IMG/VR virus record: IMGVR_UViG_3300049928_000003
Span: 1-28,128 of that record
Reading direction: 5' to 3' (one strand)
From: a virus
Lineage: Duplodnaviria > Caudoviricetes
DNA: 28,128 nt
Numbering within the stretch: the first letter of the stretch is position 1; each line of letters starts with the position of its first letter. Below, piece after piece: positions 2,016-28,128 of the stretch. The notes below the pieces were generated by a model that made no database searches, was not told the origin of the DNA, and saw only the letters and a list, made by a program, of their open reading frames with translations. The translations under genes and the position numbers were made by a program.

Positions 2016-2030
2016 CTAGGGGGTGATCTG

Positions 2031-3515
2031 ATTCCTGATTTCAAGTGGTCGGATCCGACAAGGCTATCTACCGATGAGCTAACGGACTACATTGCCCCCT
2101 ACCTGGTTAAGCTGGGCTGGTTCGCTAAGCACGGATACGTCCCGCATTACTGGCAGGCCCTCTTTCACTGTAACTCCTACGATGGTAAGTTAACGCGATT
2201 TCGCCATCTAGTAGCTGGACGCCGAGGAGGGAAAACCCTTTCGGCAGCGTGGGAAGTACTTTTCTACATGCTAAATCCAGAGTTCTTTCATCTAGACGTG
2301 CATAATGAAACGAACGCTCGCCCGTTGTGGGTGTGGGCTCTCGCCAAGAACAGTAAGGTTGGTTATCCATCGAAGCGTGCCTTTCGTGAATGCATTATTA
2401 CATGTAAGTTGATCAAGGGTAAAGACTATGAAGAGAACAAGACAGAAGGATTCTTCGAGTTTCCTAACGGATCCCGTATTGATTTTAAATCCGCAGACGA
2501 CCCTGAGTCCCTCCGAGGCGCTGGCCTTGATATACTCTGGATCGATGAGTCTGCCTTCATCCCTAACAAGGATGCCTACGACGTGGTACGACCGTCGCTG
2601 TCCGATCACGAAGGCATACTTATTACCACAACTACGCCAGATGGTAAGAACTGGTTCTACGATGAGTTCTGGTCAGACAAAGCCTTAGCTGATCTTAAAC
2701 AGGGGCGGGTCGAATACAGATCAATCGATAATGTCCATTTCCCTTCCGACGAATGGGTCTACTACAAGGAACAGACTCACCCGATGCGTTTCCGCATGGA
2801 GTTCATGGCGAGCTTCGATGCGATGGCAGGAAGGGAGTTGCAAGGTGACTGGCTTAGATACTACGAGCGAAGTGACATACCCAACGAAACAGGTCGATAT
2901 GAGACCTTGGAAACCTTCATCGGAGTTGACCCCGCTATCTCTCTTAGCGATGCAGCAGACCGCTTTGTTATGTCTTTGGTGGGGGTCGATAGGAAAACCG
3001 GACAGACTTACCTACTTGAACAGTATGCAGACAAAATCCCTTTTCCTGATCAGGTAGACAAGATCAGAGAGTGGCATTTGATCTACCGCCCTATGTATAT
3101 GGGTATCGAGTCGAATGCCTATCAGGCTGCTCTCTCGCAGTTCATGCTGCGCGATGAGCGCATGTTGCCTGTAATCCCAATTATGGCGAAGGAAAAGAAG
3201 TTCCAGCGGATTCTCTCTATGTCTCCGCTCTTTAAGATCGGTCGGGTTAAGATCCGTTCCGATCATATGGACTTCATCAACGAGTGGATCGATTATGATT
3301 CCACAGTTAGCAACCCGAAGGACGACTGTCTCGACTCCGTTGAGATAGCCTTGAGGGTTGCCGGAGCATTGCTCCCCATTCTTCCTACAGATAATACCCC
3401 CGATCCCAACGAGATGCCTCCAACTACTATGGACGAGCGCGCGCGTAGGGCTTTTCCTGGGGGAGCATGGTCTAGGGAATATGCAGGAGTAGGTGCTGAC
3501 ATTGGAGAATGGTAG
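2031..3515 (+). CDS. terL: Terminase large subunit (about 494 aa; probable ATT start)
   Basis: Frame open from 2016 with PHYWQ (Q motif) and Walker A LVAGRRGGKT (GRRGGKT at 2217-2237), then LRGAGLDILWIDES (Walker B), TTTP, and nuclease motifs IGVDPA and KDDCLDS. SD GGGGGTG 2019-2025 precedes ATT 2031. Product secure, exact start inferred. Confidence 0.93.
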   Translation: MPDFKWSDPTRLSTDELTDYIAPYLVKLGWFAKHGYVPHYWQALFHCNSYDGKLTRFRHLVAGRRGGKTLSAAWEVLFYMLNPEFFHLDVHNETNARPLWVWALAKNSKVGYPSKRAFRECIITCKLIKGKDYEENKTEGFFEFPNGSRIDFKSADDPESLRGAGLDILWIDESAFIPNKDAYDVVRPSLSDHEGILITTTTPDGKNWFYDEFWSDKALADLKQGRVEYRSIDNVHFPSDEWVYYKEQTHPMRFRMEFMASFDAMAGRELQGDWLRYYERSDIPNETGRYETLETFIGVDPAISLSDAADRFVMSLVGVDRKTGQTYLLEQYADKIPFPDQVDKIREWHLIYRPMYMGIESNAYQAALSQFMLRDERMLPVIPIMAKEKKFQRILSMSPLFKIGRVKIRSDHMDFINEWIDYDSTVSNPKDDCLDSVEIALRVAGALLPILPTDNTPDPNEMPPTTMDERARRAFPGGAWSREYAGVGADIGEW

Positions 3516-22453: not shown

Positions 22454-23100
22454 TGGCCCTATCGACTGCCCTAGCTCTTAAACTTAAGACCGCCCTATAT
22501 AAGGATGCGATAAAGTACAACTACGTTGTCCCTGGATTCAGGGTCTATCGTAGGCAGGCTGATGGGACAGTAGTTCCCGTTCCGGGTGTGGGCACTCAGT
22601 GTCGTCAGATGATCGTCTCCTACCAGAAGCGGAAGGGACTGACCGTCGATGGCACCTTCAATGCGGAAACGCAGAAGAGTTTGATTCCGCCACCACCGTT
22701 AACGGTTGGGCAGAAGATCGCCAACGTCGCCCATGCCGGGATCAATGAGGCTCCTTGCCACTACACGCAGGCACGTCCATGCGTGACCAGTCTAGCGGGG
22801 ATGAAGGCGCATGGTTGCGACTGTTCCGCCTTCGCCATGATTTGTTTGAGCGCGGTGGTATCCGGGTATAGTACCGGCTACGGCAACACATGGACTCTTA
22901 TTGCTAAGGGTACTCGTGTAGCTCGATCCAACGCTCTCCCAGGGGATCTTGTATTCTATGGGCCACGAGCGGGGGATCCCACTCATGTGGCGGTATACCT
23001 CGGTGATGGGTTCGTCGCATCGCAGGGTCACGAAGGAGGCCCCTATCTTGAGGCCATCGACTATCGTGATGACCGGATCGATATCCGGCGATATGCGTAA
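22453..23100 (+). CDS. Endolysin: peptidoglycan-binding domain plus NlpC/P60 peptidase (215 aa)
   Basis: YQKRKGLTVDGTFNAET (PG-binding); DCSAF catalytic Cys, PGDLVFYG, HVAVYLGDG. Confidence 0.9.
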   Translation: MALSTALALKLKTALYKDAIKYNYVVPGFRVYRRQADGTVVPVPGVGTQCRQMIVSYQKRKGLTVDGTFNAETQKSLIPPPPLTVGQKIANVAHAGINEAPCHYTQARPCVTSLAGMKAHGCDCSAFAMICLSAVVSGYSTGYGNTWTLIAKGTRVARSNALPGDLVFYGPRAGDPTHVAVYLGDGFVASQGHEGGPYLEAIDYRDDRIDIRRYA

Positions 23101-23162
23101 TCCCCCGACCTACGGTTCAAATTGGAGGGACTAGCTCTTAAAACGTTCCAGATCGTGATTTT

Positions 23163-23201
23163 ATTCCCTCGGGGTCTTAATTGACTTCGAGGGAATTTTT
23201 T
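23163..23201 (+). terminator. Rho-independent terminator closing the structural/lysis operon
   Basis: 14-bp stem 23163-23176/23183-23196 (two G-U pairs), loop TTAATT, T run 23196-23201. Confidence 0.85.
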
Positions 23202-23226
23202 CGTATGCGTCATCGTTTAGACCTTC

Positions 23227-23511
23227 ATGCCTAAAAACTCTTATCCCGATGAAGATGCTCGGGGTCGTCAACTCTATAAGGACTTCGGTCTTACGTATAA
23301 AGACTACGATGATATGCTGGAAAAGCAAGATGGCGTATGCGCGATTTGCGGAGGGCACAACTCATCCGGGAAAGCCCTATCGGTCGATCATTGCCACTCG
23401 ACCGGAAAGATTCGAGGACTTCTCTGTCTGCATTGTAACGTAGGTTTGGGTTACTTTCGCGATAATCCCATGCGTCTTTTGGACGCTGTGGAATATTTGG
23501 AGAGGGTCTAG
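23227..23511 (+). CDS. Endonuclease VII family (His-Me finger) nuclease (94 aa)
   Basis: FGLT.KDYDDMLEKQDGVCAICG...LSVDHCHSTGKIRGLLC..CN.GLG.FRDN. Confidence 0.93.
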   Translation: MPKNSYPDEDARGRQLYKDFGLTYKDYDDMLEKQDGVCAICGGHNSSGKALSVDHCHSTGKIRGLLCLHCNVGLGYFRDNPMRLLDAVEYLERV

Positions 23512-23545
23512 CGTTTAAACAGTACAAGCGAAAAGAAAGGCGTCT

Positions 23546-24433
23546 ATGGGACTTCTCCCAATCGACTTGCCCGAGATGATTCGCGCGGGATTAGATGCGC
23601 AGGCGAAGCAGCCAGACGGATTGCTTCATGCCTCTAGTCTACTCGAACCTCTCCGGCATTCTCAGTTAAGGGCGGCAGGTGCGCCAGAGTACCGACGTAC
23701 GTTCACAAACGACGTTACGTTGAATACGGGGACGCTGTGGCATTCTTGGCTGGAGCAACTCTTGCGTGATGGACTCGGCGTAAGTTTGGGGAATGAGAGG
23801 ATCTTCAAGCCAACTGTACTGACCGAGATTGACTGCACGAAAGGTTTCCCGGAAGGTTGGAGCGGTACGGCGGACTGGCTCATCTGGAGCCCTGAGTGGA
23901 GGGCTTTCGTCCTCGGGGACTTGAAGACTATCAAGGGGGCGGGGCTCCCATACGTTATTAGAGATGGAGCTAAAGTAGGGCATATTTGGCAAGTCTCTTC
24001 CTACTGGTACGCTTTACGTAATATGGGTTTTCCTCTAGTTGAGGGGTTTAGTATTATCTATCTTCCTAAGGATGAGGTACCCGGTAAGGATCTTCAGCCT
24101 GCGGTTATGGACTGTAACTTGATTGACGAGATGGAACTGCTAGACGCTATGACTACGAAGAAGCGTCTGGTGGATGAGTATCTGATGGAGCCTTATCCTC
24201 AGTATCTCGCTAACTTTCCAGATCGTGAATTACATAAGGTTTGGAACAAGAAAGCTAATGCTTACGACGTAGTTCTCAAGCCTCACTATCTTGCAGCGTA
24301 TTGTCGCTTTATCGACTGTGGCTGTAACGAATTAGGTCAGACCAAAGTTGGTCATATCGAGGATGGAAAGTTTGTCCCCAGAAAAGGATACGAAGACTAT
24401 GAGTCTAGAGTTATTGACGAAGCTCTCTGCTAA
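23546..24433 (+). CDS. PD-(D/E)XK (Cas4/RecB-like) exonuclease (295 aa)
   Basis: HASSL, GTLWH, SGTADWL, GDLKT and Q...Y (HIWQVSSY) motifs; adjacent to an annealing protein. Confidence 0.85.
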   Translation: MGLLPIDLPEMIRAGLDAQAKQPDGLLHASSLLEPLRHSQLRAAGAPEYRRTFTNDVTLNTGTLWHSWLEQLLRDGLGVSLGNERIFKPTVLTEIDCTKGFPEGWSGTADWLIWSPEWRAFVLGDLKTIKGAGLPYVIRDGAKVGHIWQVSSYWYALRNMGFPLVEGFSIIYLPKDEVPGKDLQPAVMDCNLIDEMELLDAMTTKKRLVDEYLMEPYPQYLANFPDRELHKVWNKKANAYDVVLKPHYLAAYCRFIDCGCNELGQTKVGHIEDGKFVPRKGYEDYESRVIDEALC

Positions 24434-24977
24434 GTTCGATGTTGACGACACAAGTATGCGTGCTGGTGGTAAGGATGGACTAGACTACATCAGCATCGAC
24501 AAGGTTATCAATCGCTTTAATGAAGTGCTTGGTACTCATTGGTCGTTCGAAATTGTTAGTGAAGATATGTACCCTCAGAGTGCGCAGGGAACTTATTTCG
24601 CAAAGATCCATGGAAAGATTAGCGCATTAGGTAAGGTTGCTCACGGAGTAGGAGCAGACATTGCGAAGGATCCTGACAAGGCTTACAAGACTGCTCTCGC
24701 AGAAGCACTCAAGAAGTGCTCCCATCAGTATGGTGTCGCACTGTACCTCTGGAACGAGGACGACCGAAATCTCCTACGGGAACAGCGTAGTCTACGTAAT
24801 AACACCCGACAGTTGGAAGCAGCCGGAGATACTTTGGCTGCGAAGAAGTCCAAGGTAATCGAACTTGCTAAGTCTCGTGGAGTGGAACTGACTAAGGAGG
24901 CTATGGCCGCGTACTTCAAGGTTGAAGATTTCAACGACGAAGCAACGTTGGATCTGATCCTCGATGCCCAGAGTTAA
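24399..24977 (+). CDS. Rad52/Rad22-family (Sak-like) single-strand annealing protein (192 aa)
   Basis: LDYISIDKVINRFNEVLGTHWSFEI...KTALAEALKKCSHQYGVALYLW; ATG 24399 preferred over the track start at 24348. Confidence 0.88.
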   Translation: MSLELLTKLSAKFDVDDTSMRAGGKDGLDYISIDKVINRFNEVLGTHWSFEIVSEDMYPQSAQGTYFAKIHGKISALGKVAHGVGADIAKDPDKAYKTALAEALKKCSHQYGVALYLWNEDDRNLLREQRSLRNNTRQLEAAGDTLAAKKSKVIELAKSRGVELTKEAMAAYFKVEDFNDEATLDLILDAQS

Positions 24978-25965
24978 GAAGTATAACTTTGATGCCCAGG
25001 CTGAACGAGCTTACAAGGCGTGGCTTAGAGATAGACCAGAACTTATTTCCTGGGACACTGAGACTTCCGGACTTACGTGGCACGACTCAGCTTTCTGCGT
25101 AACGATTGGGTGGGAGAATGAGCAGCACTACATTGAACTCGGAGACTTTGTCCGTGAGATGCAAGTGTCTACGATCCTGCGAGATACGCCTAAATGGGTA
25201 CTGCACAATGCCAAGTTCGACTTTGAAAAACTATTGTTACTTGGACTTATTGAACGCAAAGACATCACATATAATAGGTATCACGACACAGAAATGATCG
25301 CTCATCTGATTGATGAGAACCGACCTAAGGGTCTTAAGCCCTTGGCGGAAAGTGTCCTAGGAAAGAAAACTGATGAAGCTAAGGCTCTACAGAAGGAACG
25401 TCGTAGGCTCAAGCTTAAGAAGGAAGATGGATACGACAAGTTATCTCGTGAGTTCCTTGTTCCCTATGCAATCAAGGATGCACGATTTACCTTTGACCTA
25501 TACAGGACAATGGAACCTATGCTCTCCGATGGAGTCCGTCCTCTTTATGATCAGGAGCGTAAACTCGGACTCGTCCTGCTGGACATGGAATTTAAGGGAC
25601 TAGCCGTTCGTTTAGAGTATGTGCAGAACAAGGTGAAAGAGTATGGATTCATCTTGCTCAAGAGCGAGATGAAGTTACGCAGTATGACTGGTAAGGAAGA
25701 TTTTAAACCGAAGTCTACTCCCCAGATCAAAGAGGCGTTAGCTCAACGAGGATTGTTTCCCGCTGATACAGAAGCGGATACACTTAAGAAGATCGATGAT
25801 GCGTTTTGTAGGGAAATTCTGCACTTTCGCAAGTATAACAAATTACGCAACACTTACCTAGTGAACATGGTCAAGGAATACGATAACGGTATCCTGCATC
25901 CCTGGATCAGACAGATGGGAACAGTCACAGGTAGAGCAGCCAGCGGCGGAGCATCTAATAACTAG
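24964..25965 (+). CDS. polA: DNA polymerase family A, N-terminal half (3'-5' exonuclease plus thumb; 333 aa)
   Basis: ExoI WDTETSGL, ExoII HNAKFD, ExoIII YAIKDA, thumb DMEFKG...STPQI...KLRNTY; ends LHPWIRQMGTVTGRAASGGASNN-stop. Confidence 0.93.
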   Translation: MPRVKKYNFDAQAERAYKAWLRDRPELISWDTETSGLTWHDSAFCVTIGWENEQHYIELGDFVREMQVSTILRDTPKWVLHNAKFDFEKLLLLGLIERKDITYNRYHDTEMIAHLIDENRPKGLKPLAESVLGKKTDEAKALQKERRRLKLKKEDGYDKLSREFLVPYAIKDARFTFDLYRTMEPMLSDGVRPLYDQERKLGLVLLDMEFKGLAVRLEYVQNKVKEYGFILLKSEMKLRSMTGKEDFKPKSTPQIKEALAQRGLFPADTEADTLKKIDDAFCREILHFRKYNKLRNTYLVNMVKEYDNGILHPWIRQMGTVTGRAASGGASNN

Positions 25966-25974
25966 GAGGGTAGT

Positions 25975-26049
25975 ATGTATATCGGAGTCGGAACTCTGTT
26001 GGTCATTTTGATCATCCTTCTTATCGTAATCGCACTTCGGAGGATTTAA
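25975..26049 (+). CDS. Single-TM micropeptide (24 aa), not in the ORF track
   Basis: GGAGG SD overlapping the pol stop; MYIGVGTLLVILIILLIVIALRRI; TAATG coupling. Confidence 0.75.
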   Translation: MYIGVGTLLVILIILLIVIALRRI

Positions 26050-26420
26050 TGCCCATTCGTAGAGTTAATATTGATGGCAATGACGAGAATGAGAAGCCTA
26101 CCTTACGCCGGGAAGTGCTTACTGAAATGCTGAGGGCGGGTTGGCCTGACGTAGATACATGGTGTGAGGATATCCCTTACAAGGATAAGGATAAGGCTCA
26201 GAAGATCCACCATGATTTCTTGTTTAGTGTTTCGAATTCTGTGGTAGAAGGAGAAATTCCTCTTGCGGGTGTTATCTCGCTGGGAGGACTCGCTCGTAAG
26301 AATATGCCTAAGGCCATGTACCTTTTGGGATTCGCTCCTGAAGGCGGCAAGGAAACTAGGCTCCCCAATCATTGGCCCGTGTTAGACAAGGAGCCAGAGA
26401 GGAAGTATATCGATGAGTAG
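26049..26420 (+). CDS. Hypothetical protein (123 aa) inside the split pol locus
   Basis: GGAGG SD, coupled on both sides. Confidence 0.8.
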   Translation: MPIRRVNIDGNDENEKPTLRREVLTEMLRAGWPDVDTWCEDIPYKDKDKAQKIHHDFLFSVSNSVVEGEIPLAGVISLGGLARKNMPKAMYLLGFAPEGGKETRLPNHWPVLDKEPERKYIDE

Positions 26421-26592
26421 ATTTGCTCCATTCACCGATCAGGAACTTATTGAACTCGAAGACCAGCGATACTACACCGGCCCCGCATCTGGAATCTTAG
26501 ATGAACTTAGCGCAGAGATTGATAAGCGAACTGAGGAACGGCGGCAGGCGACAGCAGCAGCCAAGAAGGATGAGGGAAATGCCTCGGGCTAA
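26413..26592 (+). CDS. Small helical protein (59 aa), not in the ORF track
   Basis: ATG 26413; MSRFAPFTDQELIELEDQRYYTGPASGILDELSAEIDKRTEERRQATAAAKKDEGNASG. Confidence 0.7.
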   Translation: MSRFAPFTDQELIELEDQRYYTGPASGILDELSAEIDKRTEERRQATAAAKKDEGNASG

Positions 26593-26767
26593 GAAGAAGA
26601 AAGTTGATAGTTTCACTGATACAGAACTCTACGTCATGGCTGAACTTATCAGCACTTATGCAGGAAATTTAACGGAGTTACTCTATGCGATTGATGAAGA
26701 GATTGCGAAGCGCGAAGGAGTCGAAGCAGTCCCCCTCCAGGTCGAGGGAGAACTACCCCCGTCTTGA
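26579..26767 (+). CDS. Small helical protein (62 aa)
   Basis: ATG 26579 after GAGG (track start 26501 probably too long); MPRAKKKKVDSFTDTEL...EEIAKREG. Confidence 0.7.
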   Translation: MPRAKKKKVDSFTDTELYVMAELISTYAGNLTELLYAIDEEIAKREGVEAVPLQVEGELPPS

Positions 26768-26778
26768 ATGGTACCGTA

Positions 26779-26798
26779 CTCCCTACTTGGGTAGGGAG
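26779..26798 (+). promoter_or_regulatory. Perfect 8-bp hairpin containing a strong SD-like sequence
   Basis: CTCCCTAC-TTGG-GTAGGGAG; no U tract; GGGAGG precedes the minigene ATG CTG ATC TAG (26809-26820). Confidence 0.5.
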
Positions 26799-26848
26799 GG
26801 GCAGAAGAATGCTGATCTAGACCTAGAAATCGAAAGGCGGAAGGAAGC

Positions 26849-27646
26849 ATCAACCTCCAAAACATCCCTCGCTCTGACAAGACAATTAAGGCAGGTTTCG
26901 AACCCAAACTCGATCAGTTCGTTTTTGCTGATTACAAGGCAGTCGAATACAGATTACTCGCGTATTACCTCTTTCAGATCGGTTTCCCCGCGATGGCTGA
27001 GGATTTTCGGGCTGGACTTGATCCGCATCGACAAACCGCGATCCGTCTACTCGGCGAACGCGATACTCCCTCTGACGAAGAACGGCAGTTCGGTAAAACT
27101 TTTAACTTCGCTTCCATTTACGGGGCCGGAGCAAATAAAATTAAGACCATGCTGGCCGACGAGGGGCTATCGTTACCTGAAGGAAAGACTGCTAAGCAAC
27201 TTCATACTGAGTTCTATGCGCTCAATCCGGGGATACGAGCTTTATCGAATCCACGACCAAGATGGAATGACAACTCCTGGGTACCTGGGCATATCGAAAA
27301 GATACTCGAATCGCGTGGTTATATCCGAACGCTATGGGGTAGGGAATTACACCCTGAATACGCGTACCGGGCACTCAATTCGCTTGTTCAAGGTTGCGCG
27401 GCAGACCTTATGCGGGCGGGTATGGTCAAAGTTCACGACTGGATTACGGAAGCTAAGCTAGAATCGCACCTAGTAATGACCGTACACGATGAGTTGATCT
27501 TCGATGTTGTCGATGAGGAATTTGACCTACTCGTAGGCATGGTTCCTAAGTTGATGACCGATGCTCGACTCGAAGAGATACTACCTATTGAGGTAGAACT
27601 GGAAACTAGCCGCACTACCTGGGCAGAAAAGGAACCCTATGGGTAA
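26849..27646 (+). CDS. polA: DNA polymerase family A, C-terminal catalytic half (about 265 aa; probable ATC start)
   Basis: Frame open from 26816: (I)NLQNIPRSD, motif A FADYKAVEYRLLA (Asp at 26930), motif B RQFGKTFNFASIYG, ALNSLVQGCAAD, motif C TVHDEL. The first ATG (26993) is downstream of motif A. Product secure, start inferred. Confidence 0.9.
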   Translation: MNLQNIPRSDKTIKAGFEPKLDQFVFADYKAVEYRLLAYYLFQIGFPAMAEDFRAGLDPHRQTAIRLLGERDTPSDEERQFGKTFNFASIYGAGANKIKTMLADEGLSLPEGKTAKQLHTEFYALNPGIRALSNPRPRWNDNSWVPGHIEKILESRGYIRTLWGRELHPEYAYRALNSLVQGCAADLMRAGMVKVHDWITEAKLESHLVMTVHDELIFDVVDEEFDLLVGMVPKLMTDARLEEILPIEVELETSRTTWAEKEPYG

Positions 27647-27854
27647 GCGACAAATGGGTTTCGTCAACTTCCGTCAGAACTTTTTGTTCCCGGATGACGA
27701 GACATATGAAGAATTTGCTACTGCGTTGATGCGCAGGTTCAATGAGGATGCTATGTTCTTAGAGCAGGCTTACTCTGATCGTGGTATCGAGATTCTCCAG
27801 CACAGTGAGTTCGAACTTCACTTCGATGGCGAAGACGATGACGAAGAAGCCTAA
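27639..27854 (+). CDS. Acidic hypothetical protein (71 aa)
   Basis: AAGGA SD; overlaps both neighbours. Confidence 0.7.
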   Translation: MGKRQMGFVNFRQNFLFPDDETYEEFATALMRRFNEDAMFLEQAYSDRGIEILQHSEFELHFDGEDDDEEA

Positions 27855-28128
27855 CATTGTTATTGACTTGGACGGTACAATCCTAGAAGACTCTTGGCCG
27901 AAGCTAGGAGACTGGATGCCCGGAGCCAAGGAGGCTCTACGTGAACTTACCGAAGTATCAAAAGTACTCGTTTACACATGCAGGATCGCTCCTGTCACCC
28001 CCATGGGTATGCAACGTGACCCTGCGCACGTCCAAGCGGAGATTAACTCTATCCGTGAAAAACTCGATGACGCCCAACTCTACACCGTCGAAGTATGGAC
28101 GAAACCATACAAGCCATACGGTGTCGCG
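27838..28128 (+). CDS. HAD-superfamily phosphatase/nucleotidase, truncated by the window end
   Basis: MTKKPNIVIDLDGTI (motif I DxDGT), MPGAKEALREL, LVYTCR (motif II); open to the end of the window. Confidence 0.85.
   Translation, partial: MTKKPNIVIDLDGTILEDSWPKLGDWMPGAKEALRELTEVSKVLVYTCRIAPVTPMGMQRDPAHVQAEINSIREKLDDAQLYTVEVWTKPYKPYGVA

Follow-up and report, generated by a model that had tools for sequence, protein, structure and literature searches.

A family A DNA polymerase split inside motif 2 in uncultured phages, with a probable AUC start of the catalytic half

A split polymerase of chimalliviruses is reportedly the subject of one published study. Among the described systems closest to the present locus are the Methylophilales/OM43 phages MEP401 and MEP402 (OP830906; PMC10580990), in which PolA is likewise encoded by two ORFs with a small gene between them. 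According to the accessible text, the first ORF carries the exonuclease and the N-terminal polymerase part and the second the C-terminal part, and the authors proposed an intron. In S-TIP37, a clade B T7-like cyanophage (MH540083; accessible text of PMC12695635), a family A polymerase is also found in two ORFs, and its record leaves open a split versus a frameshift. The bicistronic gp43 of T4-like phages is described in the available part of PMC3061061 as two independently translated subunits with 2 bp to 3 kb of variable sequence between them, an arrangement like that of the present locus. However, gp43 belongs to family B and is split in the fingers, and a near-cognate start is not mentioned in that part of the text. 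The accessible portions of PMC3201878 and PMC7689252 contain no PolA split of this kind.

Near-cognate start codons are known from the infC-type AUU/AUC starts, in which, as proposed for our locus, an SD and a near-cognate codon are combined with initiator tRNA at a reduced rate (PMC5499595; bioRxiv 10.1101/063800; available parts). In E. coli, AUC gave 1-2% of the AUG level, with the N-terminal Met confirmed (bioRxiv 10.1101/063800, available part). As far as the accessible texts go, other cases gave anything between 5% and a reduction of two- to threefold, and non-canonical starts are subject to rejection by IF3 (PMC5499595; PMC2268962). The same kind of partial sources put annotated near-cognate codons at 0.004-0.024% of bacterial starts, versus 8/48 polymerase loci in the phages described here (PMC5499595; bioRxiv 10.1101/063800). 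Split polymerases and AUC starts are thus each known, and no precedent for a split inside motif 2 or for this frequency of rare starts was found in the open literature. Neither this family nor a recurrence of near-cognate starts in phage polymerase or terminase genes was found described there; since subscription papers and supplements lay outside the search, a prior mention is possible.

The window, i.e. the whole stretch of 28,128 nucleotides that was analyzed, corresponds to a 28-kb linear phage record with a completeness of about 55%. Pfam and PHROG matches identified genes for a terminase, a portal, a capsid and a Rad52-type annealing protein. No cultured phage was near (best match, 34%). 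Ferruginibacter was considered as host from a single match to a GTDB genome (L290, a MAG contig) and was not accepted. The only sequencing run with window DNA was a soil metagenome, kept as contigs, with one contig at a depth of 9.3. This contig was letter-for-letter identical to the window, without other letters, indels or joints; because it may be the window's own source, the agreement is no independent check of the ATC codon discussed below. No sigma-70 promoter-like site was found in 23000-28128. A strong terminator-like hairpin of 14 pairs (23163-23196) lies between the lysis genes and the endonuclease VII gene, which is the first gene of the replication block.

The split polymerase and its family

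The polymerase region contains the following features.

24964..25965, plus strand: PolA N-half, 333 aa, with 3'-5' exonuclease, thumb and first half of motif 2 (Pfam, PHROG)
25975..26049, plus strand: hydrophobic ORF, 24 aa, with a strong SD (-10.7) that itself overlaps the N-half stop; no PHROG match
26049-26420, 26413-26592 and 26579-26767, plus strand: three coupled small ORFs between the halves
26809..26820, plus strand: 3-codon mini-ORF, strong SD (-12.3), ending 28 nt upstream of ATC in another frame
26849..27646, plus strand: PolA catalytic half (C-half), 265 aa, with NLQNIP, motif A (Asp 26930), motif B (from 27083) and motif C (from 27482)

Motif 2, motifs A, B and C, and the Walker A motif mentioned below go by their customary names. 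The N-half matched PF01612 (27-187) and PF00476 (profile 10-123), and the catalytic half matched PF00476 (profile 125-380). On phrog_17, the halves cover 671-979 and 980-1236, contiguous and with nothing lost between. The catalytic frame aligned from residue 2, that is from NLQNIP on, with the Bacillus and E. coli Pol I structures (PDB), and this alignment identified GAT 26930 as the motif A Asp codon. Motif 2 and motifs A, B and C were present with the catalytic Asp residues, as in a family A DNA polymerase (PF00476). The window N-half stops 9 residues beyond the TGR arginine, and the break falls inside motif 2. In MEP401, by contrast, motif 2 is whole in the first ORF, the break comes about 15 residues later before motif A, and the second ORF starts with ATG, not ATC. 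In S-TIP37, the first ORF breaks off behind an exonuclease domain of 180 aa, motif 2 comes after 175 residues of the second ORF, and the ORFs overlap. The compared records thus place the break of the window at a point different from both.

The small ORFs in 26049..26767 had no Pfam or PHROG match, and the best Rfam match over 23000-28128 (E 0.54) lay outside them. By eye, ORFs 26413-26592 and 26579-26767 are alike, with a common FTD-EL...EL-ID-R pattern, and the +1 frame segment 26760-26850 just downstream looks like a third copy. The mini-ORF could possibly serve as a ribosome loader for ATC 26849. The 12 nt around this ATC are free of stop codons, and direct translational coupling to it is therefore not evident. 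Across the family, the spacers are of variable length, differ in the genes they carry, and contain coupled genes, each behind an SD.

Database proteins were compared around the break. Among 83 N-half matches, 66 end 8-9 residues past the motif 2 Arg, 10 end 7, 10 or 11 past it, 6 are long fused proteins, and 1 is outside this pattern. Tails of P0121-P0197 were 8-9 residues long despite variable last residues. The constant tail length suggests a structural limit at the cut. Of 82 close C-half matches, 49 are called exactly one residue ahead of N-x-Q; the rest are called short (20, some perhaps cut by contig ends), extended (10) or have a variant N-terminus (3). When an all-lengths profile search was performed, the best 38 matches lacked an N-half, and the first fused protein was ranked 39th. 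The linker of a fused relative has 6 residues between TGR and Asn.

We examined 69 DNA loci, comprising the window, 19 loci located through protein scans and 49 located with a pattern whose first codon is Asn, so that the preceding codon was left unconstrained; merging identical junctions left 48 distinct loci. The N-half end was located in 43/48 loci, at -4 to 2060 nt from the C-half start, and in seven loci its stop overlaps the C-half start (gaps -4 or -1). The other five comprise one with a looser N-half match about 1.7 kb upstream, two with an exonuclease motif upstream, and two with no N-half motif in the available DNA. A clade-specific pattern for DNA of the closest relatives (P0002-P0006) gave 0 viral contigs, and the N-half query alone gave none. 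Two ORFs, a break conserved among relatives and a variable spacer are what is found in a naturally split polymerase. On the sequence comparison, a family A polymerase split inside motif 2 is a trait of a whole family of uncultured phages.

The C-half frame is broken at motif A in 2/48 loci (L001 and L286), so damaged or mis-assembled copies are present in the sample. In these unrelated loci (4070-4110 in L001), a break of a few bases just after motif A ADY opens with an in-frame stop, and P0078 and P0080 are called from the next Met after the frame break. The breaks could be damage, error or a short recoding.

Start codon of the catalytic half and other rare starts

The following features bear on the start codons.

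26834..26840, plus strand: SD-like site AAGGCGG, 8 nt upstream of ATC; -7.1 kcal/mol
26849..26851, plus strand: ATC, putative start codon of the catalytic half; the homologous codon is ATG or one change away in 47/48 loci
2031..3515, plus strand: terminase large subunit, 494 aa, with a putative ATT start behind AGGGGGTGA (2018-2026)

The earlier note had proposed that the catalytic frame, closed by TGA 26813-26815, has no ATG, GTG or TTG before 26993, downstream of the motif A Asp, and that ATC 26849, followed by AAC 26852, is the best candidate start. We confirmed these coordinates and that of AAGGCGG. A product begun at 26993 would miss both NLQNIP and motif A. AAG 26834 was rejected as an alternative in-frame start, as were ATC 26864 and ATT 26885, both of which would drop NLQN and have no SD. 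A score of -7.1 or better is matched at 3.4% of 262 in-frame positions inside the gene, and most late genes of the window have SDs of -8.7 to -12.7, stronger than the one before ATC.

The codon before N-x-Q-N-I-P in the 48 distinct loci was ATG in 24, GTG in 11, TTG in 5, ATC in 3, ATT in 2, and ATA, GTC and ACG in 1 each. ATG or a codon one change away from it occupied position -1 in 47/48 loci, compared with 4/48, 9/48 and 10/48 at -2, -3 and -4, and this set makes up 20% of codons inside genes. When the codon specified Leu it was TTG in 5/5 cases (16% of Leu inside genes), and when it specified Val it was GTG in 11/12 (22% of Val inside genes). This choice of Leu and Val codons indicates selection of the codon as a start rather than for a hydrophobic residue within a joined chain.

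An in-frame TAG stands immediately before ATC in L169, ATT in L085 and GTC in L082, and a stop stands directly before the start in two ATG loci as well. In L251, ATA overlaps TAA in the same manner as ATG overlaps TGA in other loci. Of the eight near-cognate loci, only L255 and L285 carry an in-frame canonical start farther upstream; the other six lack one. Because of the start-like codon in 47/48 loci and the in-frame TAG in three near-cognate loci, ATC 26849 is very likely the real start of the catalytic half; the proposal of the earlier note is strongly supported by this comparative DNA. With a homologous start position, an SD and no canonical start, it is, as far as the letters tell, a near-cognate start of the infC-like kind.

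The near-cognate codons are scattered among relatives. They occur in 7/17 clusters at 70% identity, one cluster of which holds 30/48 loci. A quick tree search, in which L251 and L285 are long branches, required 5 changes of the near-cognate label, at least 4 of them forced by well-supported branches. Six of the eight proteins in the window clade are called short, including the nearest relative, P0002 (81% identity), which is also called only from a downstream Met. SD energy was stronger before near-cognate codons (median -9.75 versus -5.9; one-sided p 0.03, with loci that are not independent). ATG, GTG or TTG is used in 40/48 loci, and hence the rare codon is not conserved across the family.

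Rare starts were also found outside the catalytic half. The terminase frame (2016-3515) has no canonical start until ATG 2268, which is downstream of Walker A, whereas ATT 2031 has a strong SD (-10.6) and lies 61 codons upstream of Walker A. We examined 41 terminase loci; 3 had no anchor and 23 were distinct. The start position was ATG in 12, GTG in 7, TTG in 1, ATT in the window, ATC in L324 and CTG in L326. Among all plus-strand frames of the window, 7 have a near-cognate codon with a good SD before the first canonical start; for just two of these, the terminase and the polymerase frames, homology supports the start. In L285 and L005, 2 of 34 complete N-halves, a canonical start is also lacking for the exonuclease half, and at the position of the Met of homologues there is an ATC that overlaps the upstream TAA. 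The first letter of JGI proteins is not M in 8/9 C-halves and 8/14 N-halves; weak starts are therefore not clearly specific to the catalytic half. For the major capsid, taken as a high-expression control for start codons, no relatives were found. An automated missing-start scan of neighboring gene clusters was too noisy for use, as alignments entered the shared SD region and off-frame ORFs were clustered. Near-cognate starts are likely to be common in this phage family and to be missed by gene callers.

Competing explanations

One further feature crosses the start codon.

26673..27461, plus strand: +1 frame open for 262 codons, a possible overprinted ORF (ATG 26685) crossing ATC and 203 polymerase codons

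Stops are dense right after this frame ends (27461). The C-half of L262 contains another long open +1 frame, of 176 codons, which does not cross the start.

An overprinted +1 gene (26685-27461) would force a non-canonical polymerase start, because NTG followed by AAC gives TGA in that frame; AUC initiation would still occur, and its cause would be the overlap rather than the expression level. The 203-codon opening over the polymerase is rare, being reached in 0/5000 within-gene synonymous shuffles and having P 0.003-0.006 under window codon usage. NTA codons across the overlap were avoided before purines (0/17, versus 10/20 before pyrimidines; Fisher p 0.0006), and ATG 26685 has a modest SD (-6.1). 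However, such a run in any gene of the window has P 0.057, and at the 47 other loci a stop ends this frame no more than 40 codons from the C-half start. The product had no Pfam or PHROG match and no strong Atlas match (best score 0.81), and an overlap would leave the terminase ATT and the TAG-ATC junctions unexplained. We consider this cause unlikely. About equally unlikely is that ATC arose by misassembly, or by a recent change from ATG that left a dead or crippled polymerase, although it is read from one contig at a depth of 9.3 that is possibly the source, and the frame is broken elsewhere in the gene in 2/48 loci. In the window, L285 and L170, one change to ATG would also give the upstream +1 ORF a stop at a typical overlap; since this is the common overlapping stop-start junction, the present codons of these loci could be recent mutations. 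Yet near-cognate codons recur at one codon in 8/48 loci and 7/17 clusters, whereas some 750 nt of the gene show just 2 breaks; none of the catalytic motifs is damaged, and P0002 is likewise called short. The terminase ATT, the second case in the window, speaks against sequence error, since it is improbable that errors would independently hit the start codons of two essential genes, and also against a peculiarity of the catalytic half.

The remaining explanations join the halves. Ribosomes might leave the N-half at a matched codon, skip about 0.9 kb and resume in the catalytic half, so that a single full-length polymerase results, as the earlier note had considered from GGA 25948 and GGA 26843 and from AAC-TAG (25960-65) and AAC 26852. 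These codons are where it placed them, and the last N-half codon equals the first C-half Asn codon in both the window and L285, which are ATC loci. In T4 gene 60 and the Streptomyces phage Hau3 terminase, a stop likewise follows a codon that recurs downstream (PMC10732093, accessible text). However, their gaps are 50 nt and 10 nt, while that of the window is 0.9 kb and filled with genes, and the codon match is absent in 34/36 gapped loci; with an invariant Asn on the landing side, a match arises for every N-half whose last residue is Asn. Gaps across the family range from -4 to 2060 nt with coupled genes having their own SDs, the product would have 8 residues between TGR and Asn versus 6 in fused relatives, no joint was seen in the contig, and the start-like codon at -1 would be left unexplained. 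We give bypassing hardly any weight, less than the proposal that the spacer is an intron or that the halves are joined at the RNA level, which itself is highly unlikely. Phage polA genes with introns have been described (cited in PMC10580990, available part), and the constant N-half tails (8-9 residues past Arg in 66/83 matches) would fit one. Against it, a search of 23000-28128 with Rfam found no intron family at E up to 1, in seven loci the stop and the start overlap and there is no spacer, the spacers elsewhere vary in size and in the genes they carry, and the -1 codon follows start-codon usage.

Proposed mechanism and its meaning

We favor, with a probability of about 0.8, the reading that the polymerase consists of two genes split inside motif 2, with the catalytic half made by SD-guided AUC initiation and likely pairing with the exonuclease/thumb half. 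In this mechanism, the 30S subunit would bind AAGGCGG, and fMet-tRNA, the initiator tRNA, would decode AUC 26849 to begin Met-Asn-Leu-Gln, with an output below that of AUG. The exonuclease/thumb half and the catalytic half would then form a heterodimer. Binding of the two halves to each other is inferred from the contiguity of the halves and by analogy with split gp43 and split Pfu (PMC3061061, available part). By analogy, the window PolA would behave as a split enzyme of the gp43A/B type that is translated from a rare start of the infC type. Low output of the catalytic subunit and IF3 sensitivity, both suggested by the earlier note, are plausible because AUC is inefficient and IF3 rejects non-canonical starts in E. 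coli work.

In infC the codon is conserved for IF3 autoregulation (PMC5499595; bioRxiv 10.1101/063800; accessible parts), whereas here it varies among ATG, GTG, TTG, ATC, ATT, ATA, GTC and ACG in relatives. Tolerance or tuning thus fits better than a fixed feedback loop. The history of the split was likely a gene fission that gave an overlapping stop-start, followed by insertion of unrelated small genes between the halves. New junctions would be tolerated if an SD and any start-like codon were left, because the start is pinned beside the invariant Asn and because a low-copy enzyme needs little translation. A doubtful extension is that near-cognate starts on low-copy essential enzymes (polymerase, terminase) are a selected throttle that acts until IF3 discrimination falls, or that they reflect hosts with relaxed start selection. 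IF3 discrimination might fall through host state, cold or a phage inhibitor. If this were true, the phage could use the split to adjust how much exonuclease is made relative to the catalytic subunit.

Near-cognate starts are annotated in well under 0.1% of bacterial genes, and here they would serve two essential genes of one phage and 8/48 polymerase loci. Because these starts are near-cognate, gene callers cut the polymerases past the catalytic Asp and the terminase past Walker A. A Pol I fold probably remains functional with a cut inside motif 2, a point relevant to the engineering of split polymerases. The family offers a natural allele set of eight codons at one fixed position, and this set may be used to ask whether rare starts are selected for control or just tolerated.
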